A stretch of DNA of 64,000 bases from an uncultured Acetatifactor sp. (GTDB lineage Bacteria > Bacillota > Clostridia > Lachnospirales > Lachnospiraceae): the NCBI GenBank assembly GCA_947594835.1, contig CANQEH010000013.1:8838-72837 (forward strand), in the 5' to 3' direction. This document shows, in pieces, positions 13,466 through 55,871 of this stretch (positions within the stretch are counted from its first letter, which is position 1; each line of letters begins with the position of its first letter). The notes under the pieces are model-generated. The model was not told the DNA's origin, did not search any database, and saw only the letters and a program-made list of their open reading frames with translations. The position numbers were made by a program, and so were the translations under genes.

Positions 13466-13467
13466 TT

Positions 13468-15275: not shown

Positions 15276-15318
15276 ATTTTACTGAAAGAATCAGCCGACT
15301 ACTCATACAAAACAAAAG

Positions 15319-16763: not shown

Positions 16764-16871
16764 CCTCCGTCCCTCCTCTCTCCTGCCGAATGGATCAGAG
16801 AGCCGCACAGAATAAGGTTTTGATGCAGCCGTCCAGGTTTTCCGCCAAAAAACATCGGATACAAGATGCAT

Positions 16872-17933: not shown

Positions 17934-18129
17934 CTGCTTCCTTCCGAATCCCGGTGGATTCCACAAACGCATACCTGACGCTCATTATACACCCAAATCA
18001 TGAAAAAAGCTACCGCCGTCCACCCAATGCCCCCCGGCGCCTCTCACACCCCTCCCCCGCCCCTTCCCCTTGCAATTTTTCATCCGGGAGCGTACAATAA
18101 AGGCAAAGAATGCTTCCGGGAGGCATACA

Positions 18130-24921: not shown

Positions 24922-24997
24922 CCTTCCGTTCCTCTCTTCCGCCTCATTTCGGCCCGTCTGCGTCCGTCTGTCCTTTTTTCAGTATATCCCCAAACAC

Positions 24998-25029
24998 GCA
25001 AAAGTGCAAGGAGGATACCCCCCTTGCAC
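24998..25029 (-). terminator. intrinsic terminator after the ABC permease genes
   Basis: GTGCAAGG..CCTTGCAC stem followed by CTTTTG on the minus strand. TATACT -10-like hexamer just downstream for the sensor operon. Confidence 0.55.
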
Positions 25030-25043
25030 GGTTTGCCTTTCTC

Positions 25044-26788: not shown

Positions 26789-26847
26789 ACCTCTCCCAGC
26801 CTTTCTGAAGCTTATTTGCCCGTGGAATCTCTCTCCGCGGAAATCGG

Positions 26848-26872
26848 GATGGAGGGTTTATGGCCCTCCATC
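26848..26872 (-). other. intercistronic hairpin GATGGAGGG-N7-CCCTCCATC after the SBP gene
   Basis: 9-bp perfect stem between the SBP stop (26898) and the permease start (26788). This placement is typical of a partial terminator or mRNA stabiliser. Confidence 0.4.
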
Positions 26873-26897
26873 TCGCAGTGTATGCTCTTTCTTACCT

Positions 26898-28346: not shown

Positions 28347-28459
28347 AATTTTTCCTCCTTTTATGGTGAAACATTACTTGTTTCCCGTTTTTGTAATTCC
28401 ATTATATTTTCCATGCCCAGGGGATAAAATGGCTCTTTTTTTGTAAAGGTGTCATTTTT

Positions 28460-29791
28460 TTATTCATAGAGCAGGGTTTTGATGGAATGTGCCTCCACAG
28501 AGAAGAAGACGCCCTCTCCCCGCTCTCTCAGGTACACCGGAAGCGCCTTTTCCCCCCGGTTTAAAAGCACCACCGCCCGGCTGCCGTCCGGGTTTTCAAA
28601 GCCGGCTGCCTCCAGGGCGTCCGTGTAACAGGTGGATGCCACCTGCACGGCCCCCGGCTGGATATGGCGGGAAAACTGCCCGATGTAGTAATAGGAAAGC
28701 TGTCTCTCCAGGCCCCCCTGCCCGTCGCACATCATGGGCGCGGCGCAGAAATTCCCCACATGGTTGGGGCCGCCCTTTTCGTCTAAAAGCAGGTTCCAGT
28801 CAAAAAAGGCCTCCGTGCCCGCCTTCAGGTTCCCCAGCAGATCGTGGGCGTACATCTGCGCCTTTTGTACCTCCCCAAAGTCCCCGAACCGGGAATACTC
28901 CACGCACCCTTCCGTAAAGAACACCCGCTTTTCCGGGTAGGCCTTTTTCACCGCCCGGATGGCGTCAAAGTGATCCCCGGTGTACCAGTGCATGGCAACG
29001 CCGCTTGCCGCCTCCCTGCAGCCGGGCACCGAAAAGCTCTCCCTGGCCCGGTCGTACATATTTTCCTTGTTGTGATCCCAGAGAAAGATCTCCACATCCC
29101 CAAGGCCTGCCTCTTTTAAGGCCGGAGATAAGTACTGCGCCGCAAAGCGCCCCTCCTCGGAGCCGGTGTAGATGCAGGAATCCCAGCTCTGTACGGCCTC
29201 CGGCTCGTTCTGCACCGTCAGGTAGCGGACTAAAATCCCCTCCTTTTGCAGTTCCTTTAAATAGCGGACATAATACCTGGCCCAGAGGCCGTAGCACTCT
29301 TCCTTTAACTTCCCTCCGTGGTTCATCTCCCCGTTGGTCTTCATGTAAGCGGGCGGCGACCAGGGCGAGACCAAAAGCCCCAGTTCCTTTCCCCGTCTCT
29401 GGGCGGCCGCCTTTACCAGGGGCAGGATGTGCTCCCTGTCATGGCTGATGTCAAAGCTCTCCAGGGTCTGATCGCCCTCTTTTACATAGGTGTAATTGCC
29501 CAGGGCAAAATCGCAGCTGTTCATGTGCAGCCTGCCCAAGCTGTAGCGCAGGCCAGTCTCTCCAAAATACCCCTCCAGAAACGTCTCCTTCGCCTGGTCG
29601 GAAAGGCCGGCAAAGCTGACCGCCGCCGCCTCGGTGAAAGCCCCTCCGAACCCCTCTATCCGCTGTTCTTTTAATTCCGGGTAAACGTTGACCACATGGA
29701 TGAAGTCCTCCTGGGGGACGGCGGACAAGCTCTCCTCCGCCCAGTACTGCCCTTTTGCCGCGTCCGTGGTAACGGCTCTGATCTCTCTCAT
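28460..29791 (-). CDS. glycoside hydrolase family 30 (glucosylceramidase-like beta-glucosidase/beta-1,6-glucanase type), cytoplasmic
   Basis: QRIEGFGGAFTEAAA and LTVQNEPE (acid/base Glu context) are GH30 hallmarks as I recall them. No signal peptide. Confidence 0.8.
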   Translation of the reverse strand: MREIRAVTTDAAKGQYWAEESLSAVPQEDFIHVVNVYPELKEQRIEGFGGAFTEAAAVSFAGLSDQAKETFLEGYFGETGLRYSLGRLHMNSCDFALGNYTYVKEGDQTLESFDISHDREHILPLVKAAAQRRGKELGLLVSPWSPPAYMKTNGEMNHGGKLKEECYGLWARYYVRYLKELQKEGILVRYLTVQNEPEAVQSWDSCIYTGSEEGRFAAQYLSPALKEAGLGDVEIFLWDHNKENMYDRARESFSVPGCREAASGVAMHWYTGDHFDAIRAVKKAYPEKRVFFTEGCVEYSRFGDFGEVQKAQMYAHDLLGNLKAGTEAFFDWNLLLDEKGGPNHVGNFCAAPMMCDGQGGLERQLSYYYIGQFSRHIQPGAVQVASTCYTDALEAAGFENPDGSRAVVLLNRGEKALPVYLRERGEGVFFSVEAHSIKTLLYE

Positions 29792-29827
29792 GGATATCCC
29801 TCCTGTCGGTTTTGCAAGGCTGCCGCC

Positions 29828-32800
29828 CTATACCAGTTTCACATAGATGGTTTCGATCTTCCCGTCCCGCACGGCCTTTGCCGTCTCTCCTGCGAGCACG
29901 CTCTGGCAGGTCTGGAAGCTGCTTTTATCCCGATAGGTCAGCTCCATCCGCTCCACAGAGTAATTGCCGGGGAAATAGTCCCTGGTCTGGGCCGTCTCAT
30001 AGATGACCCGGGTATTGCCCAAAAGCACAGCCTCCACCCGCTTTTCTTCCCCTAACAGGTAGGCGGGCAGGGCCGGGGTTAAGGACAGGGTCAGCTCCCC
30101 GTCCTTCCAGGAAAACAGCTCCCCGAACATCATGCCCACCCACATGGAGAGAAACTCCACGGTGGAGCCGGACAGCCTTGCCACAAAGCCCCGGCCATGG
30201 CAGGACTTGTCGGGGTTTTTGCTGCTTGCCAGGAAGGAGGAATTTTCGTAAATGCTCCTGCCGTAGCGCTCCGGATCCTGGAAGGGGATAGCCGCCTTTT
30301 TAAAATCGCTGAAAAACTCCTCGTACATCCCATTTCTCAAAAGCTCCAGCAGATACTTGTACTCCATGTGCAGCCAGATGGACTCGTTCTCCAGCCAGCC
30401 GGGGGTGAATGCCTTGGCCCGCCCCAGCTCGATGGAAGCCTCCGCCAGGGAGGCGTTTACCTTGTACATCTGAAGGGGCTCGTCGTAGAGATCGCTTTCC
30501 TTGATCTTCTCATACAGCCTGCGCTTTTCCTCCTCCCTGCCCTCCAGCTTGAAGAACCGCACCGGCCCCTCTAAAAACAGCGGCACGTTTTTCTGCTCAA
30601 AGCGCAGGGGAACAATGCCCTCCCCATCCTCTGCAAACTCTTTTACCTCATAGGTAAAATAGGTGGGGCAGATGCCCTCTTTCCCTGCGGCGCAGGCTTT
30701 GCGGATGCCCGCCAGAAGCGTCTCCTGCATGGCCTGCAGCAGCTCTAGCAGCCTTCCGCTGTCCACGGAGGCCCTTGCCCCGCTGATGCCTGCAAAGGTC
30801 TTCTCCCAGTAGGCCTCCTTGGCGTCGTTTCTCAAATTCCAGAACTCCAGAAGCTCCTCTTCTTTTTGGATATCTTCCCTGCAGTGGAGGGTGATCTCCC
30901 CCATCTGCTCCAAAAATCCCGCCACCTCTGCCAGCAGTTCCATATCGGGCCGGTAGGTCTTTAACTCCCGGATGACAAACTCGACCATCCGCTCCAGCTC
31001 GTAAGTCTCGGCCATGGAGGAGCCAAACAGCCCGGGCAGGCCGTTTAGGGCGTCATACCAGCCCGGCTTGCCTCCCTCCATCTCCACGCCGCAGCCATAG
31101 GCGTCCAGGGCGGCGTACTTGGCGGCGCAGAGTAAGAGCAGCTTCTCCATCACCGTCACCTCCACCACCTCTCCCTGGCCAAAGCGGTCCCGCAGCAGCT
31201 TTTCGCCGCCCGCTTTCCTGCCCTCGTCCAGGAAATGATACTGGCGCACCCCGTTTTCCGTCTTGACATACCGCTTTTTCCGGGGCAGGATCGCCGCCTG
31301 GGAGCGGTAGAAAGTGACAGGCGTCTCAAACAGGATCTCCTTCTCCTTTTCCGGGAAGACCTTCAGATACGCTTCGATCAGATCCAGGTTATACGTCCAG
31401 TGGTCGCTCCAGTAGCCCTCGCCAAAGTCCGCGTTGACCGTGCTGTGAACCCGGCCCATCACCTGGGCGAAATACCGCTCCTCTTCCTCCACGTCCCGGA
31501 TGCCCAGTTCGTCCAGCTTTGCAAAAAACGCGCCGGGGGTGAAGGGCTCTCCCAGAAAGCCCAGAAGTTCCTCCTTCTGCTCCTGGGTAAAGCGGTCAAA
31601 GATCTCCTCCGCCGCCTCCTCCGGCAGGGTGTATGTCACCTTCTCGATGGCCAGCGGATTGTAGCCGTCCAGCTGGATCAGGCTGTAAAATTTCACGATG
31701 TTTTCTGCGCCCACATAGGGGGTAAAGAAGGCGTCGCACCTCCTGTTCTGGTTCACGTCCCGGAAATTCCCGTTGCCCTGGGAATAGTACTCGGGGAGCA
31801 TCCGGAAATAGTTGTAATCCCGCTCCAGATCCCCGTGCTTTCTGGAGTAGGCGTAAAAGATATGATCCCCGGGCAGCCGGATGGGGAATCCCCCCCGCAG
31901 CACATTGTCCATATAGGTGTAGCTGCTGTATGCGTCAAAGGCCGCATCCGCCGTCTTTGTCCCGATCACCTGGCAGAGTTCTTCCGGCAGTTTCACGGCA
32001 CGGGCAAATTTTTCTTCAAAATACGCGGGGCCGAGGCGTTTCTCCAGCAGGCGCTCCAGCAGGCGCCTGCCGCCCACCTGGCCGATGACCTCGTACAAGG
32101 TCAGGCTCTCCCCGGGCTGCAGGGTGCGCTTTGCCGCAAAGAAGCAGCAGGGATACTGGTTCGTGTCCACCTGCTGGGCCGCCAGAAAAGCGTCGTAGTC
32201 CATCCTGGAAAAGCCCACAGCCTTCTGCATGGAGCAGTCATATCCAAAGACCAGGGAGGGATCCGTCACCACCGGCAGGCGCTCTCCCGTCCCGTCGCAG
32301 GCAAACCCGTAGTTTCCCCCTGCGATAGCGGTGACGCAGGCCGTGTCCGCCATGCTGGCCCGCACCCTGAAATAGGGCACCCCGGGCATCAGCTTTTCCG
32401 CCTGCATCCAGGCCTTGGAGGTGTGCCCCATCTCCTTGACGCTGCCCATGTCCACCCCGAAGGGGATCACCACAGGCATTCCGTCCAGCACTTCCAGGGT
32501 GCAGGGCGCGCCTTTTTTGCTGCGCAGGGTCACCTTCCGCACCAGCGCTCCCGTCTTTTCCTCCGGCAGCGTGATGTAGTCTACCCGGACGTCCAGACCG
32601 TTTGCCGCATCCGTCTCCTGGATGGCAAGGCTGTTTGGCCCCACCGTCATCTGCTTTTGGGTGTCCTCCCCGGTAAAAAGCTCCAGATATCTGCCGTCCA
32701 GCCTGACAAAGGTGCGAAACCCGCGGAGGGCCGTGTGCTCATAGGACTGCTGGGCAGGGAAAAACTCCATGATGGCGTGATCCTTGTCCTCCACGCCAAA

Positions 32801-32935
32801 GCTTGCGATGCACTGGCCGCGGTTGACATAATAGCACCAGATGGGGATGCCGTGGAGCCCTGCAAGCCCCGGAAGGAAGCTGGCAAAGGCAGGCTTTTTG
32901 TCATAATCGGTAATGGTAAAGGTCATATCGGACAT
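29828..32935 (-). CDS. 1035-aa uncharacterised (alpha/alpha)6-barrel-type glycoside phosphorylase/hydrolase-like protein, distantly GH94-like
   Basis: FRDVNQNRR, GKPGWYDALNGLPG and ENESIWLHMEYKY occupy positions analogous to the RD..QD, DWND and ENG..FxH segments of GH94-type enzymes. I cannot place it in a named family. Confidence 0.5.
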   Translation of the reverse strand: MSDMTFTITDYDKKPAFASFLPGLAGLHGIPIWCYYVNRGQCIASFGVEDKDHAIMEFFPAQQSYEHTALRGFRTFVRLDGRYLELFTGEDTQKQMTVGPNSLAIQETDAANGLDVRVDYITLPEEKTGALVRKVTLRSKKGAPCTLEVLDGMPVVIPFGVDMGSVKEMGHTSKAWMQAEKLMPGVPYFRVRASMADTACVTAIAGGNYGFACDGTGERLPVVTDPSLVFGYDCSMQKAVGFSRMDYDAFLAAQQVDTNQYPCCFFAAKRTLQPGESLTLYEVIGQVGGRRLLERLLEKRLGPAYFEEKFARAVKLPEELCQVIGTKTADAAFDAYSSYTYMDNVLRGGFPIRLPGDHIFYAYSRKHGDLERDYNYFRMLPEYYSQGNGNFRDVNQNRRCDAFFTPYVGAENIVKFYSLIQLDGYNPLAIEKVTYTLPEEAAEEIFDRFTQEQKEELLGFLGEPFTPGAFFAKLDELGIRDVEEEERYFAQVMGRVHSTVNADFGEGYWSDHWTYNLDLIEAYLKVFPEKEKEILFETPVTFYRSQAAILPRKKRYVKTENGVRQYHFLDEGRKAGGEKLLRDRFGQGEVVEVTVMEKLLLLCAAKYAALDAYGCGVEMEGGKPGWYDALNGLPGLFGSSMAETYELERMVEFVIRELKTYRPDMELLAEVAGFLEQMGEITLHCREDIQKEEELLEFWNLRNDAKEAYWEKTFAGISGARASVDSGRLLELLQAMQETLLAGIRKACAAGKEGICPTYFTYEVKEFAEDGEGIVPLRFEQKNVPLFLEGPVRFFKLEGREEEKRRLYEKIKESDLYDEPLQMYKVNASLAEASIELGRAKAFTPGWLENESIWLHMEYKYLLELLRNGMYEEFFSDFKKAAIPFQDPERYGRSIYENSSFLASSKNPDKSCHGRGFVARLSGSTVEFLSMWVGMMFGELFSWKDGELTLSLTPALPAYLLGEEKRVEAVLLGNTRVIYETAQTRDYFPGNYSVERMELTYRDKSSFQTCQSVLAGETAKAVRDGKIETIYVKLV

Positions 32936-32962
32936 GATCTGTCTCCTCCTTAAGCATTGGTC

Positions 32963-35656
32963 TTATATCAATTCTGCAAAAATCTCATGCCGGGTCTCTT
33001 TGTCCAGGCCGCGCATCTGTTCCGCCGTCACGGCTGCGCCTTCCTGCTCCGGAAGCCTTGCGCCGTCCAGATAGACCGCTCCCAGACGGTATGCGCCGCA
33101 GGTTTTCCGCTCCCGGTTTTCGTACTCAATCTTTAAGCTGCGCCCGCCCCAGGTCAGCTCGATGGAGGCCCTGCCCTCCCCGTCAAACTGCTCCGCCAAA
33201 AGCTTCGGCTCCAGACACAGGGCGCCAAATTTTCCCTTCACGCCGAAGACCTCCTGAACCACGGTCAGCACATACCAGCTGGCTGCCCCGGTCAGGTAAT
33301 GGTACAGGCCCCGTCCCCTGTCGTCGAAATACTCCGGGATGCCGGGATAAATGCAGCTTACCTCAAAATCCGCCGCCTGCTCATAGAGCGTGTGCAGCGC
33401 CTTGTGCCCCTCCCCGGCAAACCCCTGCCGGTACAGGGCGTTTGCGTACATGGTCGTCATATGGGAGAACACGGCGCCGTTTTCCTTGTGGCCGTAGGCA
33501 AAGCCGAACATACGCCCCAGATCAGTCTTTAGCTCTTTAAAATCCGTGTTCAGCCGATATCCGCCCACCTCCCTGCGGTACAGATAGCGGTCTGCGCTCC
33601 TTGTGATCTTTGCGGTCTGCTCTCTCGTTGCCGTCCCGGACATGACGGCAAACACCTGGCCTGTGAGCATCATGCGCACGCCCTCTTTGGTCTTTCCCTC
33701 CACCTGCCTGCCGTGGTCGTCGTAATAGCTGTTAAACCAGCCGTCCTCCCCGTCCTCGATCCACTCCGTCTTCCGGATATGCTCCCGGATCCAGGCCGCT
33801 TTGTGCCGGAGGCTCTCTGCGGCGTCCTCCGCCCTGAGATAGCATTTTTCTCCCGACAGGGTGTGGCGGCAGCTCTCACAGTAGCTGGCAAGGAGCCTGC
33901 GCTTCTCCTCCGGGCTGTCATAGAGCTTTTCACTGTCCGAAAACAGCACCTCCATCTCCGCTGCCACCCAGAAGCCCTCCATGCCCCGCTGCGCTTTCTG
34001 CGCCTCGATGAGGGAGGCTAAGGTGTCCAGGTTTTCCGCATAGGCGGCGGTAAACGCCACGCTCTCCCCCTGATGGGCCGCCATATCCAGCGCGTCGTTC
34101 CAGTCCGCCCCCCTTAGGAGCATATGGTTGTGTCCGCCCACATCGTAAAACACCGTCAGGTTCTGCACCAGAAGATGCTCCAGCACGCTGCCCTGGTACA
34201 CGCCGCCGGAAAGATCCCGCTGCAGCGGTGCTTCCCCGGGCAGGAAATCCGGGTCTATCTGGGTGCCCCGAAAGATCTGGCCGTCCTTAAAATAGCTGTT
34301 CTCCCTGCACAAAAACTCCAGATCCCCCGTCTGGTGTATGTACTGCCCCACCGTGATGAGCGGCCAGAGTCCGTGATCCATCCAGACCCTGGTGATATGG
34401 TTTCTGTCCGCCAGAAACTCTCCCGGTCCGTTTCCGATGATGGTGGCGTTGGTGCCGTCCATGCGCACGCCGCCGAAATTGGCCAAAAGCATCTCCTTCA
34501 CCCCCTGGGGATTCAGGAGAAGCAGCGCCAGGCAGTCCTGCCACAGATCCCGCCATCCCCTGCCGCCCCGGCCATAGTCGTGATGGGGCAGAAAGGAGCA
34601 GCCGTAGATCCGCCGCAGGATGGGCTGGAAGGTCACCCAGTGCAAAAAACGGTCAAAGTCCCTGTCCCCGGTGTGGTAGTGGATGCTGACCTTCTCCTCC
34701 CAGTAAGCTTTCGTCTCCTCCAGGGCCGAGAGGGCTTTCTCTTTCGTCCCCAGGGCTTCCCGCAGCGCTTCTTCCTGCCAGGGCCCCTGGGTCAGCCCTG
34801 CAAGCAGCACATAGGAGACGCTCCCGCCGGGAGCAAGGCTCACCTGGGCAAAGCGCATGGCCCCCATGGCCTCCCGCCCCGCCGCGCTTTCGCCCGCCGG
34901 GACGCCGGGAAGACGCCCATAGACGGCCCGCGGGCAGTCGTAGCTTCCGCCCTCCCCCACAAAGTCGCCTGCAACGGGATAAAAAGCCTCCGGGGCTTCC
35001 CCGGTTCCTGTAAACCCGGCGGCAAAATAGGTGGTGTCATTGATCTGATGCCCCCTCTCGTCAAAGGAGAGGGTGGGATGCACCAGAACGCTGTGCCGGG
35101 TGGTGCAGATCCGGTGCAGCAGGGAAGTCACGTGCCTGTGATCCCGCAGGTTGTCGGCGCTGCGCCCGTAGATCGGGATGGCGCTGTAAGGCGTAAACGT
35201 CACGGGGGATACGCCGTCGTTCTGAATCGTCACCAGCAGAGCTTCCACATTGCCCTGCCGCACCGGCACGAACGCCTGGATCCGGGAGGTAAGCCCCGTC
35301 CTGGCGCTGTGCCTGACCGTCTGCTGCCACATCAGCCCCGCCGTCAGACTGCTCTCCTCCCCCTTCCCCTCCGCCCGGGCCGCCGCCTCGCTGGCGCTGG
35401 CCCCGGTGGCCGACCAGACGGATCCGTCTGAGAGCGCGCACCAGAAATTCCGGGTGCTCCTGTTGTTGTGCAGATCCTCCACGCTCACAGGCTGTAACAG
35501 GAAATGATCCTGATCCGTCTTTGCGTCGCCGCCCAAAAGCGGCGTGAACGCGCTCCGCAGGCCGTCTCCCGAAGCAATGGGAAAATACAGGCCGCTTAAC
35601 GCCTCTGGAAACGGCAGGGTAAAAGTGCCATTATCGTCCTGATAAGAGTAAGCCAT
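32963..35656 (-). CDS. GH94-like glycoside phosphorylase (cellobiose/oligoglucan phosphorylase superfamily)
   Basis: Trimmed to ATG 35656 (MAYSYQDDNGTF...). GWRDLWQDC, RGADWNDALDM and HKENGAVFSHM are motifs typical of GH94. Confidence 0.7.
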   Translation of the reverse strand: MAYSYQDDNGTFTLPFPEALSGLYFPIASGDGLRSAFTPLLGGDAKTDQDHFLLQPVSVEDLHNNRSTRNFWCALSDGSVWSATGASASEAAARAEGKGEESSLTAGLMWQQTVRHSARTGLTSRIQAFVPVRQGNVEALLVTIQNDGVSPVTFTPYSAIPIYGRSADNLRDHRHVTSLLHRICTTRHSVLVHPTLSFDERGHQINDTTYFAAGFTGTGEAPEAFYPVAGDFVGEGGSYDCPRAVYGRLPGVPAGESAAGREAMGAMRFAQVSLAPGGSVSYVLLAGLTQGPWQEEALREALGTKEKALSALEETKAYWEEKVSIHYHTGDRDFDRFLHWVTFQPILRRIYGCSFLPHHDYGRGGRGWRDLWQDCLALLLLNPQGVKEMLLANFGGVRMDGTNATIIGNGPGEFLADRNHITRVWMDHGLWPLITVGQYIHQTGDLEFLCRENSYFKDGQIFRGTQIDPDFLPGEAPLQRDLSGGVYQGSVLEHLLVQNLTVFYDVGGHNHMLLRGADWNDALDMAAHQGESVAFTAAYAENLDTLASLIEAQKAQRGMEGFWVAAEMEVLFSDSEKLYDSPEEKRRLLASYCESCRHTLSGEKCYLRAEDAAESLRHKAAWIREHIRKTEWIEDGEDGWFNSYYDDHGRQVEGKTKEGVRMMLTGQVFAVMSGTATREQTAKITRSADRYLYRREVGGYRLNTDFKELKTDLGRMFGFAYGHKENGAVFSHMTTMYANALYRQGFAGEGHKALHTLYEQAADFEVSCIYPGIPEYFDDRGRGLYHYLTGAASWYVLTVVQEVFGVKGKFGALCLEPKLLAEQFDGEGRASIELTWGGRSLKIEYENRERKTCGAYRLGAVYLDGARLPEQEGAAVTAEQMRGLDKETRHEIFAELI

Positions 35657-35729
35657 AACGCCTCGCCTTCTGCCGCACAGGCGGCACATCTGCCTCCTTG
35701 GAGACAGAATTTTTCGATACCCTTATTAT

Positions 35730-35765
35730 AAAAAAAGGCCCCCTTCCAGGAAAGGAGCCTTTTTT
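35730..35765. terminator. bidirectional intrinsic terminator (A7-GGCCCCCTTCC-a-GGAAAGGAGCC-T6)
   Basis: Near-perfect 11-bp stem with flanking A and T runs, 20 nt after the stop at 35785. Confidence 0.6.
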
Positions 35766-35784: not shown

Positions 35785-37356
35785 TTAGTTTTGTAAATTT
35801 CTGGGGCCCATCTGCCCGGGATCCATCCCGCCGGGAGGCATCTCCCCAGGGCTCATCTCCCCGGGAGGCATCTCTCCTCCCATTCCTCCGGGATTCCTGC
35901 CCCCGGGGCCCATCCTGCCGTCCATGCCGTCTCCATAGATCAGCTGCTCCAACGTGATTTCCTGGGTTGTGTCCCCTGCCGTCAGAGTGTACGTCCGCCC
36001 CTGTTCCAGCTGGGGGCAGCTGACCACCACGCAGTTAAAGGCGCTCTCCGGCAGAAACTGCACCAACACCTCCCCCGTTTCGTCCGCCAGGGAAATCTCC
36101 TCTCCCGCCTGGCAGTCCGAAACCTGAAGCAGGATGGAGCCCTGGGTGGAAGCGTCCCCGAAGTTCATGGCCATCCGGCCATCCCCCGCAGCCGCCAGGA
36201 CGCCCCCTGTGATCTGCCCTGTCCCGCCGTAGTCCAGGGAGGCGTTTGCGCCGTCTTCCGGGCCGGAGACATAGGTTTCGCCCCCGGTGACCGTAAGATC
36301 CCCGTTGGAGTCAATGCCGTCGCCCGCCGCGTGGATCTTTAGCATTCCCCCGGAGATGACGATACTGGCGTCGCTTCCGCCAAAGGCCTCGCCGTTCCCC
36401 GGAAAAGCGCCAAAACCGCTCTGGTCATTTCCGCCTGCCGCGTTTAAGCCGTCGTCCGACACGTTTAAGCGGATCTCCCCGCCGGCGATCTGCACCTGGT
36501 TTCCCTCGATCCCCTCATACCCTTGCGTCACTTCCAGACAGCCGCCCAGCACGGAAGCGGAACCGTCTGCGTGGACGCCGTCGTCCTCCACGCACATCTG
36601 CAGCGTCCCACCGCTTACGGTCACATCCCCTTCACTGTTTATGCCGTCCTTTCCTGCGGTAATCCCGATCTGCCCGCCGCCCACGCGCACGCTGTCCTTT
36701 CCCTCCAGTCCGTGGCCCTTTTGGGCGGTTATTGTAAGGCTGCCGCCTGTGACTGCCAGATCGTCCTTGGTGACGACGCCGTGCCCGTCCTCTGCCGTGA
36801 CGCTTAAGCTGCCGCTGCCGTTTATGGTCAGATCACACTTGGAAAAGATGACGCCGTCGATGTTGTTTTCGTCAATGGCCACATAGCCGCCCCCTGTCAG
36901 GCTGTTTCCGGCGTCCGCTGCCAGCGTCACAAACAGCTTATCCGCGCTCTTTGCGTAAATGGCCGCGCCGCTGTGGTTGGAAATCTCCACTCCGTCCAGC
37001 ACAAGCTGTACCTTGTCCGTGTCCGCAGCTTCCACTACCACCATCCCCTCCAGACTGCCCGAGAGAAGGTAAGTTCCCTCGTCAGTGATGGTGACGGTGT
37101 TTCCTGTCACCGCCACGGAAGACCCGCTGCTTGATGCGCCGTCCCCCGTCAGTGAGATGGCGGTGCACTCCGCCGGGTCATAGCTTCCGCTTAAGTCCCT
37201 GTCCGTAAACAGCTGCGAAACATCCGGCAGGGTCTCCCCCACCGTGCCGTTCGCTGCCAGAGTGTCCGTGGCCAGGGTGTCCGTCCCCTGGGATGTCTGC
37301 TCCCCGCAGGCGGTGAGCGCAAGCGCTGCCGCCGCCAGGAGCGCCGCCTGCCTCAT
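35785..37356 (-). CDS. beta-helix carbohydrate-binding-domain lipoprotein (Cthe_2159 / DUF4353-like) with Pro/Gly/Met-rich tail
   Basis: Trimmed to the ATG giving MRQAALLAAAALALTACGE (lipobox). Repetitive ...VTITDEGTYLLSGSLEGMVVVEA...VQLVLDGVEISNHSGAAIYA... pattern typical of that family as I recall it. The upstream 46 codons of the track ORF are 18-bp repeats. Confidence 0.7.
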   Translation of the reverse strand: MRQAALLAAAALALTACGEQTSQGTDTLATDTLAANGTVGETLPDVSQLFTDRDLSGSYDPAECTAISLTGDGASSSGSSVAVTGNTVTITDEGTYLLSGSLEGMVVVEAADTDKVQLVLDGVEISNHSGAAIYAKSADKLFVTLAADAGNSLTGGGYVAIDENNIDGVIFSKCDLTINGSGSLSVTAEDGHGVVTKDDLAVTGGSLTITAQKGHGLEGKDSVRVGGGQIGITAGKDGINSEGDVTVSGGTLQMCVEDDGVHADGSASVLGGCLEVTQGYEGIEGNQVQIAGGEIRLNVSDDGLNAAGGNDQSGFGAFPGNGEAFGGSDASIVISGGMLKIHAAGDGIDSNGDLTVTGGETYVSGPEDGANASLDYGGTGQITGGVLAAAGDGRMAMNFGDASTQGSILLQVSDCQAGEEISLADETGEVLVQFLPESAFNCVVVSCPQLEQGRTYTLTAGDTTQEITLEQLIYGDGMDGRMGPGGRNPGGMGGEMPPGEMSPGEMPPGGMDPGQMGPRNLQN

Positions 37357-37378
37357 CCTGCCGCTTCCCTTTTTTTGT

Positions 37379-37432
37379 CTTTTGCCGTTTTCCTGTGTTT
37401 TTCCAGTTTCCTGTCTTTTGTCAGTTTCCTTG
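37379..37432. repeat. three tandem 18-bp repeats (CTTTTGCCGTTTTCCTGT / GTTTTTCCAGTTTCCTGT / CTTTTGTCAGTTTCCTTG) plus a degenerate fourth at 37361-37378
   Basis: Read directly; lies just upstream of the lipoprotein start codon. Confidence 0.8.
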
Positions 37433-37560
37433 CTATGTCTGCCCATCGTCTTACCGACCTCCCTGACCGCATCCATGCGCTCTCGCTTTTTCAAAGCCCC
37501 GCTGGTTCTGCGCCTGCTATGCCGTCGCTATACCGTCCGGGACTCGCTATGCCTATCCAA

Positions 37561-37620
37561 AATTTTCTATATCTGATTTGAATTTTCTATGCTGCCCTGA
37601 ACTTTCTGTACCTGCCCTGG
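37561..37620. repeat. three ~20-bp tandem units (AATTTTCTAT.../AATTTTCTATGCTGCCCTG/AACTTTCTGTACCTGCCCTGG), decaying further to 37660
   Basis: Read directly. The adjacent 37514-37553 carries three copies of (C/T)GCTAT(G/A)CC. Confidence 0.75.
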
Positions 37621-37684
37621 GCTTGCTGCACTGCCCCGGACTTTTTCAACATCTTTCGGGCTCTCCCCTGCGCCGCAGCCGCAG

Positions 37685-37770
37685 CAGGCGGTCACAGTTC
37701 GCAGCCTCGATCCCTCTCTGGGTAGGCGTGTTGCCACGCCCGTAGCCGCGCAGGCGGTCACAGTTCGCAG
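37685..37770. repeat. 20-bp exact direct repeat CAGGCGGTCACAGTTCGCAG (37685-37704 and 37751-37770)
   Basis: The second copy contains the last four codons and the stop of the DUF4956 gene. The first copy is a duplicate of that gene end 66 bp downstream. Confidence 0.9.
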
Positions 37771-38459
37771 ACCGCCGTTTCCTGCTGGCAGATGGAGATC
37801 TCCAGATTCCCGTTGCGGCAGCGGAGCTTGTCGATCAACTCCTTCTCCGCCCCGGCGTCCTTCAGCACAATGCTGTAAGTCAGCTTAAACAGGCTTCCCA
37901 GACTGGCAGTCTTTACCTGCTCCAGCGCATGGGAGCTTGTATACTCCTCCAGAATCTGGTCAAAGACGCCGGTGTAGTCCAGATCCTCCGGGATGGTGAT
38001 ATGTAGCGTCTTATGCCGCCTGGCCTGCGCTTTGCCGCCGAAGTCCAGCCGGTTGTACACCATCATCACAAGGCCGAGCAGCACCGCAAACAGCACCCCG
38101 TACCCCAGATAGCCCATGCCGTTTATCAGGCCCGTGCACATGGCCAGAAAAATCGCGCAGATCTCCTTCGCCGTGCCGGGCGCCGACCGGAAACGCACCA
38201 GGCTGAAGGTTCCCGCCACCGCCACCCCGGTGCCGATGTTCCCGTTTACCATCAGGATCACCACACACACCACCGCGGGCAGAAGCGCCAAAGTCAGAAG
38301 AAAGCTCTTGGTGCAGCGGCTCCCGACGGTGTATACGGCGGCAAGGAAAAGCCCCGCCAGCAGGGAGACCGCCAGGCAGAGAAGAAACGCCCCCGGGGAG
38401 ATGGAGGCCGCCGCCTGGGCGTCCGTGTCAAAAATTCCTCGAAACCACCTGTCAAGCAT
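37758..38459 (-). CDS. DUF4956-domain membrane protein (copy 1)
   Basis: Four-to-five TM helices with the conserved FSLVRFRSA segment and a C-terminal soluble domain. The start overlaps the VTC gene stop. Confidence 0.8.
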   Translation of the reverse strand: MLDRWFRGIFDTDAQAAASISPGAFLLCLAVSLLAGLFLAAVYTVGSRCTKSFLLTLALLPAVVCVVILMVNGNIGTGVAVAGTFSLVRFRSAPGTAKEICAIFLAMCTGLINGMGYLGYGVLFAVLLGLVMMVYNRLDFGGKAQARRHKTLHITIPEDLDYTGVFDQILEEYTSSHALEQVKTASLGSLFKLTYSIVLKDAGAEKELIDKLRCRNGNLEISICQQETAVCEL

Positions 38460-39168
38460 ATCTCTTTCCTCCTCTTTCTCTCTCCATCAAAGTGCAGTAA
38501 GCGTTCCCGTATTTGGAAAAGGAAACCTTCTGCAGCCGCTCTTTTGTCAGGATTTCCACCATCCAGAGCGGGATCCCCCCGCAGGTCTTTAACTCCATCA
38601 GGGTGCTCCCCTCCTCCAGCAGGGGTTCCCCGGCTGCCTCCTCCCCCAGGGACAGCCCAGACGCCCGCCAGAGGATGTTTTCGTCAAAGGTCACCCGGAA
38701 GCTCTCCTCCTTTTTGTCAAAGAATGCCTCCCGCTCATAGGAGAGAAAGATCTTCGGCTGAAGCGTCCCGTAAAAGGACACAAAATAATCGATCTCGTCC
38801 GTGATCTGGCTCCGTGCAGGCGCCGGAATCCGGCCTGCCAGATAGTCCTCTGCCTCCGTCTGGCGGATGCCCATACGGCGCTTGTAGACCACCGAGTTGT
38901 ACTTCTTTTTCAGCTCTATAAACACCTGATCCTGCGGGGCGGCCTTTTGATAACTGCGCACCCGCAGCTTTTCCTTGTAGACGGGATGCTCTAAAGACCT
39001 GCGGGCCAGCCGGAAGGTATCCGTGTCGTAATAGATATTGCGGATGGTGCTCCTGCCGAAGCGATCCGGCTCCATGCGCCCCTCCAGCGCCTCCATAATC
39101 TTTTGTTTCTGTGCCCCGTTCAACAGGTACTTGATTTCATACCGTTCAAACACCATCGGCGTATCCAT
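38452..39168 (-). CDS. VTC-domain (polyphosphate-polymerase-like / triphosphate tunnel fold) protein (copy 1)
   Basis: Trimmed to ATG 39168 (CAGGAGG SD). MDTPMVFERYEIKYLL (RxExK[Y/F] strand), RNIYYDT, KLRVRSY, MELK, SFSKY. The alternating charged strands are typical of VTC/CYTH tunnels. Confidence 0.8.
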   Translation of the reverse strand: MDTPMVFERYEIKYLLNGAQKQKIMEALEGRMEPDRFGRSTIRNIYYDTDTFRLARRSLEHPVYKEKLRVRSYQKAAPQDQVFIELKKKYNSVVYKRRMGIRQTEAEDYLAGRIPAPARSQITDEIDYFVSFYGTLQPKIFLSYEREAFFDKKEESFRVTFDENILWRASGLSLGEEAAGEPLLEEGSTLMELKTCGGIPLWMVEILTKERLQKVSFSKYGNAYCTLMERERGGKRYA

Positions 39169-39229
39169 AAAAACCTCCTGAAACCGCGGCAGGCTGCTGC
39201 CGCTTTTTTCTGAGATTATCCTAACACGC

Positions 39230-39249
39230 GAACCTAAAGGGAACCTTAA
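39230..39249. promoter_or_regulatory. direct repeat GAACCTAAA-N2-GAACCTTAA (11-bp spacing) at the -35 position of the VTC operon; candidate OmpR-family response-regulator site
   Basis: On the minus strand it reads TTAAGGTTCccTTTAGGTTC, 17 nt upstream of a GATAAT -10-like hexamer (39215-39220). Confidence 0.35.
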
Positions 39250-39283
39250 CCAGATTGTGAAATAAATGTGTTTTCCTGTCCCC

Positions 39284-39313
39284 TTGAAACCCCCGGGCAT
39301 CCTATGCTAGAAT
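39284..39313 (+). promoter_or_regulatory. sigma-A-type promoter TTGAAA-18 nt-TGcTAGAAT for the two-component operon
   Basis: Hexamers at 39284-39289 and 39308-39313. Confidence 0.5.
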
Positions 39314-39361
39314 GAAGCTGTCCAGGGCCCGGCCAAACCGGCCCGGGGAAAGGAGGGCTCC

Positions 39362-40039
39362 ATGCGGCTTTTGATTGCGGATGACGACCAGGATATCCTC
39401 AAGGTGCTGACGGCGCTGTTTGAGCGCAGCCACTACAGCACGGACGTGGTCTCCAACGGAAACGACGCTTACGATTACGCATCAGGCGGGAATTACGACG
39501 GTGTGATCCTGGATGTGATGATGCCCGGCATGGACGGCCTGGAAGTGCTTCGGAAATTAAGGGCGGCCGGGGTGAAGACGCCGGTGCTTTTGCTCACCGC
39601 CAAAGGGGAAGTGGAAGACAGGGTAAGCGGCCTGGACGCCGGGGCAGACGATTATCTGCCAAAGCCCTTTGCGGCTTCCGAGCTGCTGGCCCGGGTCAGG
39701 GCCATGCTCCGCAGGCGGGATCAGTACCGGGGGGACGTCCTCTCCTTTGAGGGTCTGACCCTGGATCTTGCCACTTTTGAGCTGGGATTCGGCGGCAGGC
39801 GCATCCGCCTGGTCAGCCGGGAGTTCCAGATGCTGGAGCTTTTGATGCAGTCCCCCGGCGCCCTGGTGTCCACAGAACAGTTCATGGAGCGCATCTGGGG
39901 ATGGGACTGCGAGGTGGAGCCAAGCATCGTCTGGGTCTACCTCTCTAATCTGCGGAAAAAGATAGAAAACCTGGGCGCGCCTGTGGGCATCCGGGCGGTC
40001 CGGGGCGTGGGCTACTGCCTGGAAAGGAGCGCGTCATGA
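39362..40039 (+). CDS. OmpR/PhoB-family response regulator
   Basis: MRLLIADDDQDILKVL...DVMMPGMDG...LTAKG, and a winged-helix end VRGVGYCLE. Confidence 0.93.
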   Translation: MRLLIADDDQDILKVLTALFERSHYSTDVVSNGNDAYDYASGGNYDGVILDVMMPGMDGLEVLRKLRAAGVKTPVLLLTAKGEVEDRVSGLDAGADDYLPKPFAASELLARVRAMLRRRDQYRGDVLSFEGLTLDLATFELGFGGRRIRLVSREFQMLELLMQSPGALVSTEQFMERIWGWDCEVEPSIVWVYLSNLRKKIENLGAPVGIRAVRGVGYCLERSAS

Positions 40040-41352
40040 TACCGAAGCTTCGCAGGAAATTTATCTCCATCACTGCCTGCACCCTCTTTGCCGTCCTCGT
40101 GCTGGTGGTGGGCTCCATCAACGGTATTTTCTTTTTTCAAAACACCCGCCTCCTCTCCTCCCATCTGGACGGGCTGCTTGCGGAATACGGCTCCGTCCCA
40201 AGGCCCCCCGCCGGCCTGCCGGGAGAAAAGCCTGGCCCCGCCGCGCCGAAAGAGCCCGGCCAGGCCCCCGAAGACTTCCATCTGCTGCCCCGTTTCGAGG
40301 ATCGCCTGAAAGTGCGCCCCGACGGCTGCGTGCTCTTAATGGCGTCAGACGGCTCCATCGCCGACATCCGTCAGGATAACGCAGGCCGGTATTCCCGGGA
40401 GGAGCTGGAAGCGGTGGCGGACGCTGTCCTGTCCAAAGGACGAAGCGAAGGGTGGCAGAAATATTACAAATTCCGGGTGGTCGCCGTGCAGACGCCGGAG
40501 GGGGAGTCCCAGACCCTCATCGGCCTGGTAAACGGCTCCTCCGCCCTTTACGCAGTGTTTAACGCGCTCACCGTTTCGGCCCTGATCGGCGCCCTCTGCT
40601 TTCTCCTGATCCTGTCCGTCCTGATCGTGGCCTCCGGCCGGGCGGTGCGGCCCATCGCAGAGAGCTACGCAAAGCAGAAGCAGTTTGTGACGGATGCGGG
40701 CCATGAACTCAAGACCCCTCTCACCGTCCTCTCCGCCGACAACGAACTGGCGCGGATGACCTTCGGGGACAGCGAATGGTTTGACAACATCGACAAGCAG
40801 GTGGCGCGGATGGACGGCCTGGTACGCAGCCTGATCACCCTGGCCAAAATGGATGAGGGGCAAAAGCCCGTATTCACCCGGTTTTCCTTAAGCGACGCCG
40901 CCTTCGACACCGCCAGATCCTTTGAACACTTAAGCCGCGCCAAAGGCCGGGAGCTTGCGTTAGACATTTCCGATGGGATCTTTTGCCTGGGAGACGAGTC
41001 CAGAATCCGGCAGATGATTTCTATTTTGATGGACAATGCCGTGAAATATTGCGACACAGAGGGGAAGATTTCTGTCAGCCTGCACGCCGGGAGAGGGATA
41101 CGGCTTCAGATTACCAACGATTATGCAAAGGCTTCGGAATTTGAGCCGGAAAAAGTATTTGAACGGTTTTACCGGGCAGACAAGGCCCGCACGGAACCCG
41201 GCAGTTACGGGCTTGGCCTGTCCATCGCCAGATCCATTGCCAGACAGCACAGGGGAGAGATCCGCGCAAAAGCCCTGGAGGGCTGCCGGGTGCGCTTTGA
41301 AGTGACCCTGCCCCTCACCCGGCCTGGGGACGCTGTCTCTGACCGTCGATGA
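40036..41352 (+). CDS. sensor histidine kinase (two TM, HisKA + HATPase_c)
   Basis: H-box FVTDAGHELKTPLTV, N-box ILMDNAVKY, G-box GSYGLGLSIARSIA. The start overlaps the RR stop. Confidence 0.92.
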   Translation: MIPKLRRKFISITACTLFAVLVLVVGSINGIFFFQNTRLLSSHLDGLLAEYGSVPRPPAGLPGEKPGPAAPKEPGQAPEDFHLLPRFEDRLKVRPDGCVLLMASDGSIADIRQDNAGRYSREELEAVADAVLSKGRSEGWQKYYKFRVVAVQTPEGESQTLIGLVNGSSALYAVFNALTVSALIGALCFLLILSVLIVASGRAVRPIAESYAKQKQFVTDAGHELKTPLTVLSADNELARMTFGDSEWFDNIDKQVARMDGLVRSLITLAKMDEGQKPVFTRFSLSDAAFDTARSFEHLSRAKGRELALDISDGIFCLGDESRIRQMISILMDNAVKYCDTEGKISVSLHAGRGIRLQITNDYAKASEFEPEKVFERFYRADKARTEPGSYGLGLSIARSIARQHRGEIRAKALEGCRVRFEVTLPLTRPGDAVSDRR

Positions 41353-45983: not shown

Positions 45984-47156
45984 CTACCCATCCTCATATT
46001 TCCCCGCCATCGCCAGAATCTCTTCGCCGTATGCGGGATAACGCTTCACGATATCCATGATCTCCCCGCGGGCTCTCCCGGCCACGCCGTCGTTGTAATC
46101 CATCTGTTTGCGCAGCGCCTGGCGGCGCAGGATCAGTTCATGGCGGATTTCCACCATCTCCCGCTTGTCCAACAGCGCTTCGGGCTGGTTCGTCCAGCGG
46201 CCCGGGTCTGCGATGTGATAATTTGACATCCTTGCCAGAAGCTGCTTCTGATAATAGTCCAGCTTGGCCTCCGCCTCCGCGTATACCTTGCGCTCCTCCT
46301 TCTCCTGCTGATACTGCTTCCAGAGCTTCTCCAACGCCTGCCCGCTCTCGGTATTGTATTTCAGGCACAGGTATTCCTGCAGGTTCTTGTTGTTCACATA
46401 TCGGATTTTTACCTTGTTCTGCAGCAGAATCAGCCGGTTCACGGCGTTGATCACCCGGTGCTTTTCCCGCTCCGCGTCCGTGTATTTGATCCAGAGCACG
46501 GTGACGGCCACTGCCGCCGCCCCGCCTGCCAGCACATATCCGATCTTGGTATTCATCTGGAAGGCAAACTGCAGCACCAAAAGCATCAGCACACAGGCTG
46601 CCAGGGCCGTCAGGAAGATAAACGCCATCCCCCGCAGGTTGTCCATCATGGTCTCCAGCTCCGTCCTGCGGTAGGCATAGGCGTGCCTTTCCCTGTCCAG
46701 CCGTTTCATATCCTCCTGCACCAGCGCGCCGTACCGCTCGCACTCCTTCAGCTTGTCGATGCCCTGCTGTATCTGGTCCTCCTGCTGCCGCAGACGGTAA
46801 TAGTCGGCATCCTTCATCCGATTCTTTTTTCCCTGATACCGCTCCCGCTCCCGGACAAAAGAAACCATCCGCCTGGCAATTCCGTTTAAGGCCTCCCGCT
46901 CCTCCTCCGGCAGGGCTTCGATCTCGTCGATGTCCGTCAGATAAGACGTCACCTGGGCATACTCGCCGCTCAACAGATCCTTTTCCCTGGCCGCGTCCGC
47001 CGCCTGCTCCAGACATTCCTCCACATACTGCCTGCGCTGGACGCTGTCGGTAAAGTCCACCTCTGAACCGTCATAGGCCACGGCGTCTTCCCAGTCCTGC
47101 CCATCACTAGCTTCCTCTGTCTTCTTCCTTCCGAACCACTTCTTCCAAAATCCCAT
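45984..47156 (-). CDS. coiled-coil membrane protein (two central TM helices), unknown function; last gene of a four-gene operon
   Basis: 390 aa. Charged heptad-like N- and C-terminal halves flank FIFLTALAACVLMLLVLQFAF and IGYVLAGGAAAVAVTVLWI. Confidence 0.75.
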   Translation of the reverse strand: MGFWKKWFGRKKTEEASDGQDWEDAVAYDGSEVDFTDSVQRRQYVEECLEQAADAAREKDLLSGEYAQVTSYLTDIDEIEALPEEEREALNGIARRMVSFVRERERYQGKKNRMKDADYYRLRQQEDQIQQGIDKLKECERYGALVQEDMKRLDRERHAYAYRRTELETMMDNLRGMAFIFLTALAACVLMLLVLQFAFQMNTKIGYVLAGGAAAVAVTVLWIKYTDAEREKHRVINAVNRLILLQNKVKIRYVNNKNLQEYLCLKYNTESGQALEKLWKQYQQEKEERKVYAEAEAKLDYYQKQLLARMSNYHIADPGRWTNQPEALLDKREMVEIRHELILRRQALRKQMDYNDGVAGRARGEIMDIVKRYPAYGEEILAMAGKYEDG

Positions 47157-47168
47157 TGCCCGCTCCCG

Positions 47169-48026
47169 TCAGTTGCCCACGCTGTTTCGATAGCCGTCCT
47201 TTAAGGCCTGGATGATCCGGTCTGCCTCCTCGTCATACTTTGACCGTTCCACGCCGCCCCGCCGCTCCCGCCTGCCGTACAAAAGGAGGTATTCCGGCTG
47301 CTTTTCCCACTCCTGTGTGAGCTTTTCCATCTCTTTTTCCAGCTCCAGGGCCTGCTCGTAATTTGCCGTCTGTTCCGCCGCAAAAGCGATATACTCCCCT
47401 TCCGTCAGCGTCATCCTCTTTGCCGCCAGATAGTCCCGGTAACAGCCCGGATCCCGGTCGGTCTGGCAGGCTTTGAAAAAGCACTCCGCCGCCCGCTCAT
47501 AGAGCATCAGGCCCGTCAGGGCCACCCCCTTGTTGTGCAGGATGGCACCAAGGCAGCCTGCCGCCGGCAGCGGCTCCCCCTTCTCCTCCGCCTCCCGCCA
47601 TTGCTCCAACAGCGCGTCGTACTCTCTGACCGCAGCCAGATATTTTTTGTTTCTGACCAGAAAGTCCACCTGGCTCTTTCTGCGCTCGATCCGGCTTAAG
47701 CCTGCCCCCTGCTTTAAGACCTGCTCCACCTCTTTCACCACGGGCTCCGGGTACATTCCCACATATCCCATGATGGTGCTCACAAAGGCGCTCAGGGAGC
47801 CCTGCCTGTGCACCAGAGGAGACAGCGCACGGGCCAGTTCCTTCAACCCGCACTCCCGCTCCATCCATCCCAGCAGCCCGTCGCTCATAAGCGACGCATC
47901 CAGCAGGAACGCATTTTCTTTCAGGCAGTAGCACAATTCCTCCATACAGTACACATTGATCTCAAGCCCCGGCACACAGTACGGCAATTTCGCATAATTT
48001 CCCACACAGACACTGACCCGCATCAT
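47169..48026 (-). CDS. hypothetical cytoplasmic protein, helical/TPR-like C-terminal half
   Basis: 285 aa. The start overlaps the upstream stop (ATGA). No recognisable catalytic motif. Confidence 0.7.
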   Translation of the reverse strand: MMRVSVCVGNYAKLPYCVPGLEINVYCMEELCYCLKENAFLLDASLMSDGLLGWMERECGLKELARALSPLVHRQGSLSAFVSTIMGYVGMYPEPVVKEVEQVLKQGAGLSRIERRKSQVDFLVRNKKYLAAVREYDALLEQWREAEEKGEPLPAAGCLGAILHNKGVALTGLMLYERAAECFFKACQTDRDPGCYRDYLAAKRMTLTEGEYIAFAAEQTANYEQALELEKEMEKLTQEWEKQPEYLLLYGRRERRGGVERSKYDEEADRIIQALKDGYRNSVGN

Positions 48027-49315: not shown

Positions 49316-49330
49316 GTGTCTTCTCTCCCG

Positions 49331-52909: not shown

Positions 52910-52965
52910 TCCCACTCTCCCGCTTCTCCTCTGTACCATTCATGACCCGTCCAGGCTTCTATTCC

Positions 52966-55148: not shown

Positions 55149-55159
55149 TTTCGACTCCT

Positions 55160-55855: not shown

Positions 55856-55871
55856 CCTCTTTGTTTTCTCC

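Follow-up and report, generated by a model that had tools for sequence, protein, structure and literature searches.

The VTC-type polyphosphate polymerase is described in reviews as a eukaryotic enzyme, the prokaryotic one being PPK (PMC12526157, PMC10657179). The bacterial gene families treated here are nonetheless annotated, and the linkage of VTC-domain, DUF4956 and CotH genes is published: genes for CotH, a polyphosphate polymerase and DUF4956 flank Gram-positive pel clusters (Whitfield 2020, PMC7112168), and the CotH/VTC/DUF4956 arrangement occurs in NELoc-2 of Clostridium perfringens, where the membrane gene is annotated as tubulin/FtsZ (Lepp 2010, PMC2879425). Deletion of either the DUF4956 or the CotH homologue of Streptococcus intermedius reduces Pel-dependent aggregation (PMC12345266). 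A further family, founded by Cthe_2159 of Clostridium thermocellum, has a founding member that is said to bind cellulose and polygalacturonic acid and to resemble PL9 lyases (PMC6712302). Here we analyse a locus in which a VTC-domain protein and a DUF4956 membrane protein share an operon with a Cthe_2159 lipoprotein, next to a two-component system. It lies in a stretch of 64,000 nucleotides from an uncultured Acetatifactor sp. (assembly GCA_947594835.1, contig CANQEH010000013.1), referred to below as the window. In the literature that we searched, the variant with Cthe_2159 and a two-component system, its operator and the three-way linkage were not found described. The first-pass annotation of the window knew of no characterised bacterial example; this holds for biochemistry in the literature searched, but not for the VTC-DUF4956-CotH linkage or the CotH and DUF4956 deletion phenotypes, which are in print.

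The locus and its gene order

The VTC gene (38452-39168, minus strand, 238 residues) starts with the ATG at 39168, preceded by an AGGAGG ribosome-binding site, and is followed on the same strand by the DUF4956 gene (37758-38459, 233 residues), a repeat-containing spacer (37357-37757) and the gene of the lipoprotein (35785-37356, a precursor of 523 residues). A terminator-like hairpin 3' of the lipoprotein gene (35740-35757, minus strand, from a consensus scan alone) is the likely end of the operon. On the plus strand, an OmpR/PhoB-family response regulator (39362-40039, 225 residues, Response_reg and Trans_reg_C domains) and a sensor histidine kinase (40036-41352, 438 residues, HisKA and HATPase_c domains) are encoded by genes that overlap by 4 nt. 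The first-pass annotation had read all five genes from the sequence, and the open reading frame listing and the Pfam scans agree with it; its OmpR-type pair, divergent from the VTC operon, is confirmed by the four domains just named, and the motifs that it had picked out (RYEIKY, RNIYYDT, KLRVRSY, MELK, SFSKY and FSLVRFRSA) are all present in the translations. The overlap that it had noted between the VTC stop and the DUF4956 start measures 8 nt, and its repeat-rich spacer of ~400 bp measures 401 bp and contains real short direct repeats.

The VTC-domain protein as a Vtc4-type tunnel enzyme

Against the Pfam VTC family PF09359 the protein scores 145.4 bits (cut-off 23, E 2.7e-42), covering profile positions 2-234 of 235. 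Modelled by AlphaFold from an alignment of 36 diverse homologues, it reaches a pLDDT of 93.2, and the 13 best fold matches in the PDB are tunnel domains of Vtc4, Vtc2 and Vtc3 (TMq 0.67-0.75), headed by the Vtc4 structure 3g3r (TMq 0.75, E 2.7e-13); E. coli YgiF, CYTH proteins and class IV adenylate cyclases come next in the fold search, with a TMq of ~0.5. Compared with the PDB as a single sequence, the protein gave faint Vtc3 matches only; a profile made from its bacterial homologues matches Vtc4 chains with an E value of 8.6e-12. Over the entire domain, hhalign aligned the bacterial profile with Vtc4 at 97% probability, using a Vtc4 sequence whose last 95 residues (386-480) are not a database copy, the HMMER alignment having reached residue 385 only. 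This stretch reproduces the published numbering of E426, K428, S457 and K458. When the profile of the C-terminal half was used alone, the last two Vtc4 strands were left unaligned.

The active site of the yeast enzyme has been mapped by mutation: alanine substitution of Vtc4 K200, R264, R266, K281, R361, S457 or K458 lowers yeast polyphosphate, Y359F does so as well, E426 chelates the active-site Mn2+, and K458 is the sole listed residue that differs between active Vtc4 and inactive Vtc2/Vtc3 (bioRxiv 10.1101/2023.01.27.525886). E426 is also among the sites of the inactivating mutant R264A/R266A/E426N (PMC9911596). The first-pass annotation had proposed comparing the tunnel residues with those of Vtc4, and all nine have a counterpart here: K200, R264, R266, K281, Y359, R361, E426, S457 and K458 align to K13, R69, R71, K87, Y144, R146, E192, S218 and K219. 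Among the 36 diverse homologues eight of these positions are invariant, the exception being Y144, which is outside both the invariant and the near-invariant positions of that alignment. The equivalent of K458, K219, lies inside the invariant SFSKY motif. In the first strand, bacterial VTC proteins keep a glutamate (E11) where Vtc4 has a threonine.

Judged by sequence and predicted structure, the protein is a Vtc4-type tunnel enzyme with the full active-site residue set, which bears out the tunnel signatures noticed at first reading. Its most probable activity is the building of polyphosphate from the gamma-phosphate of ATP. The bacterial family, whose members carry the NCBI name 'polyphosphate polymerase domain-containing protein', comprises 5,278 clusters at 50% identity (E up to 0.001) and is common in gut Clostridia, despite the eukaryotic label given to this enzyme in reviews.

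The DUF4956 membrane partner

The DUF4956 protein matches PF16316 with 57.9 bits (gathering score 30.6, E 1.4e-15). Hydropathy and loop charges predict five membrane helices, an outer N-terminus, an inner C-terminus, and charged cytoplasmic loops at residues 45-51, 89-98 and 138-152; in this topology an invariant S-x-x-R-F-R motif falls where helix 3 ends on the cytoplasmic side. Residues S86, R89, F90 and R91 of this motif, along with glycines in helix 4, are among those that stay invariant even in a paralogue that is 22% identical. After the membrane helices the model shows a beta-alpha-beta-beta-alpha-beta domain of ACT/ferredoxin-like type, and the weak fold matches of this C-terminal part are to ACT, NIL and NikR-type small-ligand domains.

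A likeness to MgtC/SapB has been put forward for the S. intermedius homologue (PMC12345266). Pfam gave no MgtC match for the DUF4956 protein at E values up to 10, and hhalign against an MgtC sequence that was not a database copy returned 5% probability. These comparisons do not bear the likeness out, though with a shallow profile and a poor model a remote relation of fold may exist. Transcriptome papers naming DUF4956 held no usable clue to function.

Conservation of the module across genomes

Relatives were collected by a scan of one genome per species, which gave 570 confirmed relatives; the linkage counts refer to the best 80 of these 570 and were obtained by tblastn with the proteins of the window, the denominators being loci with enough flanking DNA. 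The 80 are all Clostridia and include Lachnospiraceae, Oscillospiraceae and Acutalibacteraceae. A DUF4956 gene directly follows the VTC gene in 73/73 loci, and the 8-nt overlap between the two recurs in 36 of 58. A Cthe_2159 protein is encoded no more than 4 kb downstream of VTC in 60/63 loci, and a regulator and kinase adjoin the module in 31/41, upstream on the same strand in 15 loci, divergently in 14 and downstream in 2. Seen from the side of Cthe_2159, of four proteins distantly related to the founding one, three sit beside VTC and DUF4956, in varying order; the fourth adjoins a sigma/anti-sigma pair. The linkage across genomes on which the original idea depended is therefore found in both directions, and since the gene order is kept across 80 genomes, the arrangement is not a matter of chance.

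We read the five genes as a self-contained module, widespread in gut Clostridia. Around it in these 80 genomes no further gene family is a recurrent neighbour, phosphatases, phosphate transporters and glycosyltransferases included, and CotH occurs in 0/80 of the loci, nor is it present at the locus studied here. Two apparent VTC-Cthe_2159 fusions (P0320 and P0340) were set aside: the VTC part is truncated and DUF4956 is missing, so that these metagenomic cases are most likely deletions or assembly artefacts.

The two-component system and its putative operator

Hydropathy places membrane helices of the histidine kinase at residues ~10-28 and 180-198, flanking an extracytoplasmic loop of ~150 residues. 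In 36/41 related loci the alignment with the neighbouring kinase begins at residue 1, which indicates that the sensor part is orthologous, and the regulators of adjacent pairs have a median identity of 50%. Neither protein reaches the cut-off of any NCBIfam equivalog (PhoBR, CusRS/CopRS, RppAB and others); the best scores of the regulator are 197.5 for RppA (cut-off 250) and 175.8 for PhoB (cut-off 296), and the matches of the kinase are far under their cut-offs.

Between the divergent operons lies a direct repeat with a period of 11 bp, TTAAGGTT-ccc-TTTAGGTT (39230-39249, minus strand), which we take as the putative site of the response regulator. It is situated 62-81 nt upstream of the VTC start and 9 nt upstream of a -10-like hexamer of the VTC operon, GATAAT (39215-39220, minus strand); its general form is TTTAAGTT-N3-TTTAGGTT. 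Direct repeats standing in for the -35 box are the typical geometry of OmpR/PhoB-family activators. The regulator-kinase operon has a sigma-70-like promoter of its own (39284-39313, plus strand; TTGAAA-18-TAGAAT with a TG, 10/12 matches in a consensus scan).

Repeats of a similar kind, spaced by 11 bp, are found at the same place in many related loci, and a comparative matrix of 20 nt, iteratively refined, has the consensus TTTAAGTTCATTTTAGGTTC. Of the 76 VTC upstream regions on which this matrix was trained, 49 score higher than the 99th percentile of Markov-resampled controls, and most sites begin at -54 to -69 relative to the VTC start. Its density is 4.4/kb in the 180 bp upstream of VTC vs 0.017/kb in the other 2.26 Mb, both strands counted, an enrichment of ~255-fold across the related loci. 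Elsewhere there are 39 matches, about half of them directly upstream of the adjacent regulator gene; both the 2.26-Mb contrast and these regulator-gene sites lay outside the training of the matrix. In the whole window, on both strands, there is a single match, the one upstream of VTC (score 22.7). On these comparative grounds the sensor pair very probably controls the VTC operon. The geometry of the repeat and the sites upstream of regulator genes indicate activation of the VTC operon and autoregulation, by a regulator that would bind there.

The surface lipoprotein and the spacer before it

The lipoprotein matches PF14262 with 215.9 bits (E 8e-64) and is homologous to the solved beta-helix of Cthe_2159 (PDB 4PEU, E 9e-29). 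It has an LTAC lipobox, and nearly all of its 60 homologues carry a lipoprotein signal; the Cthe_2159/DUF4353-like beta-helix lipoprotein of the first reading is recovered on all three counts. The beta-helix domain is followed by a small C-terminal domain and a tail rich in Gly, Pro and Met. The mature protein is strongly acidic, with 72 D/E vs 17 K/R, an isoelectric point of 4.05 and a net charge of ~-55, and this acidity is conserved (median net charge -53.5 across the 60 homologues).

The N-termini of the homologues are short, so the start is placed at the ATG at 37356 and the spacer measures 401 bp. It contains a 21-nt exact direct repeat (37684-37704 and 37750-37770, 66 nt apart), besides three copies of ~20 nt and an 18-nt periodic repeat, five direct repeats (D1-D5) being marked in it. 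The second copy of the 21-nt repeat covers the last codons and the stop of the DUF4956 gene, for which reason the repeat looks like a small local duplication; with the other short repeats it brings the spacer to its present length. In most relatives the gap between DUF4956 and the lipoprotein gene is ~5-70 bp, so that the long repeat-rich spacer is a peculiarity of this locus. An Rfam scan of the whole window gave no RNA family, which leaves the spacer without a known riboswitch or small RNA, and a consensus scan of the 401 bp gave no terminator-like site.

A paralogous cluster with CotH

The window holds a second, distantly related pair on the minus strand: a VTC gene at 55160-55855 (26% identical to the first VTC) and a DUF4956 gene at 54474-55184 (22% identical to the first DUF4956). 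Directly upstream of this pair is a gene for a CotH kinase-family protein of 678 residues with an N-terminal signal or anchor (55872-57908, minus strand). The GC content of the cluster (54474-57908) is 0.41-0.47 vs ~0.58 around it. Its arrangement is the published one of the pel loci and of NELoc-2.

The third side of the triangle is found in other genomes. The founding Cthe_2159 protein, represented by a copy that is 99% identical, is encoded right after a CotH-domain protein of ~800 residues; such CotH-Cthe_2159 pairs were seen in L081 (3556-6861) and in L083 and L084 (3553-6870), and in Acetivibrio clariflavus the pair lies within an exopolysaccharide biosynthesis cluster. CotH and Cthe_2159 are both extracytoplasmic, so VTC-DUF4956 has repeatedly been paired with proteins that work outside the membrane. 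As any two of the three (VTC-DUF4956, Cthe_2159 and CotH) are thus found together in one genome or another, the pattern of neighbours suggests one cell-surface pathway shared by all three, and it favours a product that reaches the outside.

Proposed mechanism and alternatives

We put forward a model of a sensor-switched Vtc4-type synthase working with DUF4956 and a surface lipoprotein; we hold it tentatively, since taken as a whole its chances seem to us a little short of even. The histidine kinase would sense through its extracytoplasmic loop and phosphorylate the OmpR-type regulator, which would bind the 11-bp-spaced repeat TTTAAGTT-N3-TTTAGGTT at the -35 position and switch on the VTC operon as well as, in many of the genomes, the operon that encodes the regulator itself. 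The Vtc4-type tunnel enzyme, standing alone, would make polyphosphate from ATP. DUF4956, translationally coupled to it, would dock the enzyme at the membrane, with the R-F-R motif predicted at the cytoplasmic face, and the tunnel may release its product at this motif. Passage of the growing chain outward by DUF4956 is speculative. The acidic lipoprotein would then work at the surface, either upon the product or in concert with it, probably by way of bridging divalent cations or together with a surface polysaccharide. The family, the predicted fold, the active-site residues, the pairing with DUF4956, the operon with the lipoprotein and the operator-like repeat shared with the regulator gene form the established part of this model, as far as sequence and structure prediction carry; export via DUF4956 and surface use of polyphosphate are speculative. 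The fullest version is a signal-induced synthase-exporter, in which the chain would be threaded out, form a cation-bridged layer with the lipoprotein and, in the paralogous cluster, serve as extracellular phosphoryl donor for the secreted CotH kinase; we consider this version possible but doubtful.

Several results weigh against the model. No biochemical study or activity measurement of any bacterial VTC protein was found in the literature searched, and the end of the Vtc4 sequence used for hhalign was not a database copy. For DUF4956 the predicted structure is poor (pLDDT 62), with its membrane helices modelled better than the rest; no pore is evident in this model, and a fold search with it, at such low confidence, found nothing significant and no VTC channel chain. 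In Pfam, at E values up to 10, DUF4956 is the sole match of the protein, with no Vtc1/DUF202. In neither sequence nor model does this partner show a detectable tie to the yeast VTC channel, and its role as a polyphosphate translocase is an analogy only. The first-pass annotation had suggested a synthase/translocase pair, of which the Vtc4-type enzyme stands and the translocase is left without detectable homology to the yeast channel subunits. About a quarter of the loci with room for it lack an adjacent two-component system, and the matrix, as said, was trained on the upstream regions that it scores. Finally, at a net charge of ~-55, direct binding of polyphosphate by the lipoprotein is unlikely unless metal cations bridge the two; the earlier idea of an extracytoplasmic product binder is weakened in its simple form by this charge and by the isoelectric point of 4.05, and its cation-bridged form is left.

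Some of these results are also what one would expect if polyphosphate stayed in the cytoplasm as a store of phosphate, energy or cations, with DUF4956 as an anchor or regulator whose ACT-like domain senses a metabolite and with a lipoprotein that has a surface role of its own and is co-regulated only. We judge this unlikely, yet it survives best among the alternatives. It draws on the same enzyme evidence, on the resemblance of the C-terminal domain of DUF4956 to small-molecule-binding ACT/NIL domains, on the lack of any pore or channel homology found for DUF4956, and on the acidic lipoprotein being a poor polyphosphate binder. A cytoplasmic store, however, would have no need of an obligatory, coupled membrane partner, as seen in all 73 loci and in the recurring 8-nt overlap (36/58), and the third partner is always extracytoplasmic, Cthe_2159 here and CotH in the paralogous cluster. 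Yeast, moreover, avoids cytosolic polyphosphate through coupled translocation (PMC9911596, PMC10657179).

Next in order, and likewise improbable in our view, comes the modification of a surface glycan, where the module would supply phosphoryl groups, in the form of polyphosphate or of some other product of the tunnel enzyme, to modify or anchor an extracellular polysaccharide, Cthe_2159 would bind or process the glycan, and CotH would carry out the transfer in the paralogous cluster. By analogy with the founding member, the lipoprotein would alternatively bind polysaccharide; the reported cellulose and polygalacturonic acid binding and the PL9-lyase likeness of that member (PMC6712302) point this way, as do the position of its gene after CotH, the A. 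clariflavus pair in an exopolysaccharide cluster, the CotH, polyphosphate polymerase and DUF4956 genes flanking pel clusters (PMC7112168) and the lowered Pel-dependent aggregation of the S. intermedius DUF4956 and CotH homologue deletions (PMC12345266). The loci of the present type speak otherwise: glycosyltransferase or polysaccharide-export genes are not conserved neighbours in the 80 genomes, CotH is in none of the 80, and the beta-glucan genes of the window are not conserved neighbours either.

Least probable is a tunnel enzyme that is not a polymerase, such as an inorganic triphosphatase or a nucleotide-converting enzyme, whose work with DUF4956 would serve signalling or detoxification. 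The fold is common to triphosphatases and class IV adenylate cyclases, which are significant fold matches too, and the retained E11, in place of the threonine of Vtc4, is a typical feature of tunnel enzymes that hydrolyse, but the best sequence and fold matches are to the VTC family specifically and the Vtc4 residue set is present, including the equivalent of K458 that sets Vtc4 apart from Vtc2/Vtc3.

Surroundings of the locus

Downstream of the lipoprotein gene lies a probable beta-glucan utilisation locus (20014-35689, minus strand), which we regard as separate from the VTC module. It encodes a GH94-like protein (32963-35689), a GH149-like protein resembling 1,3-beta-glucan phosphorylase (29828-32935) and a GH30 protein (28460-29791), all on the minus strand, and also a solute-binding protein, two ABC permeases, an unassigned 547-residue protein and a His_kinase/AraC-type sensor pair. 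We considered these genes (GH94-like, GH149-like, GH30 and the ABC transporter) as part of the module and discarded the idea, since each is a singleton in the set of related loci. Beside this sugar-utilisation locus, a 652-residue protein combines periplasmic sugar-binding-type domains with a GGDEF diguanylate cyclase (18070-20028, plus strand). Further along, the minus strand at 45984-52939 encodes a series of uncharacterised, large proteins: DUF5717 (1202 residues, E 2.4e-285), DUF5716 (430 residues), a TPR-like protein of 285 residues and a 390-residue protein without a Pfam match. The stretch 6001-18000 has a GC content of 0.39-0.50 vs ~0.57 elsewhere, which suggests acquired DNA.

Implications

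If the VTC enzyme is active, bacteria would have a second route to polyphosphate, independent of PPK, and the pair with DUF4956 would offer a simple two-protein model for coupling polymer synthesis to a membrane; should the synthase-exporter reading be true, the module would be a bacterial counterpart of acidocalcisome loading. The three-way linkage could also explain the role of secreted CotH kinases in bacteria that do not sporulate. The comparison supplies handles for experiments: the operator, the cognate kinase, residues K13, R69, R71, E192 and K219, and the R-F-R motif. In a cultivable relative, C. thermocellum, the VTC-domain gene Clo1313_1989 carries a weak signature of convergent mutation in ethanol-adapted lines (PMC10503014), a possible lead to a phenotype.

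Comparison with known systems

The yeast VTC complex, in which the tunnel domain of Vtc4 is joined to a membrane channel of Vtc1, Vtc3 and Vtc4, is among the closest known systems. Its catalytic domain belongs to the same Pfam family and shares the predicted fold and the triphosphate-binding and catalytic residues, and in both cases an obligatory membrane protein accompanies the enzyme. The bacterial enzyme differs in being a lone domain of 238 residues, with no SPX and no fused DUF202 membrane domain; its partner is DUF4956, with five predicted helices and an ACT-like domain, instead of three-helix DUF202 subunits. Control in yeast is by inositol pyrophosphate, whereas here it would be exerted by a two-component system, and the bacterial operon includes a surface lipoprotein.

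With the pel-accessory and NELoc-2 clusters the locus shares the core of VTC and DUF4956 and an extracytoplasmic third partner. In place of CotH it has the Cthe_2159 lipoprotein and a dedicated two-component system, and there are no pel genes nearby. Compared with C. thermocellum Cthe_2159 itself (4PEU, carbohydrate-binding), the beta-helix domain is homologous, but the lipoprotein, at almost double the length, also has a further C-terminal domain and the Gly/Pro/Met-rich tail, and it adjoins a VTC module where the founding gene adjoins CotH.

The control region, finally, recalls PhoR-PhoB: the regulator is of the same family, and the putative operator likewise has two half-sites of ~8 bp with a period of 11 bp, ending ~9-10 bp before the -10. 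The two systems part in that the regulator and kinase fall below the NCBIfam cut-offs for PhoB and PhoR, and in the sequence of the repeat, which was derived here.

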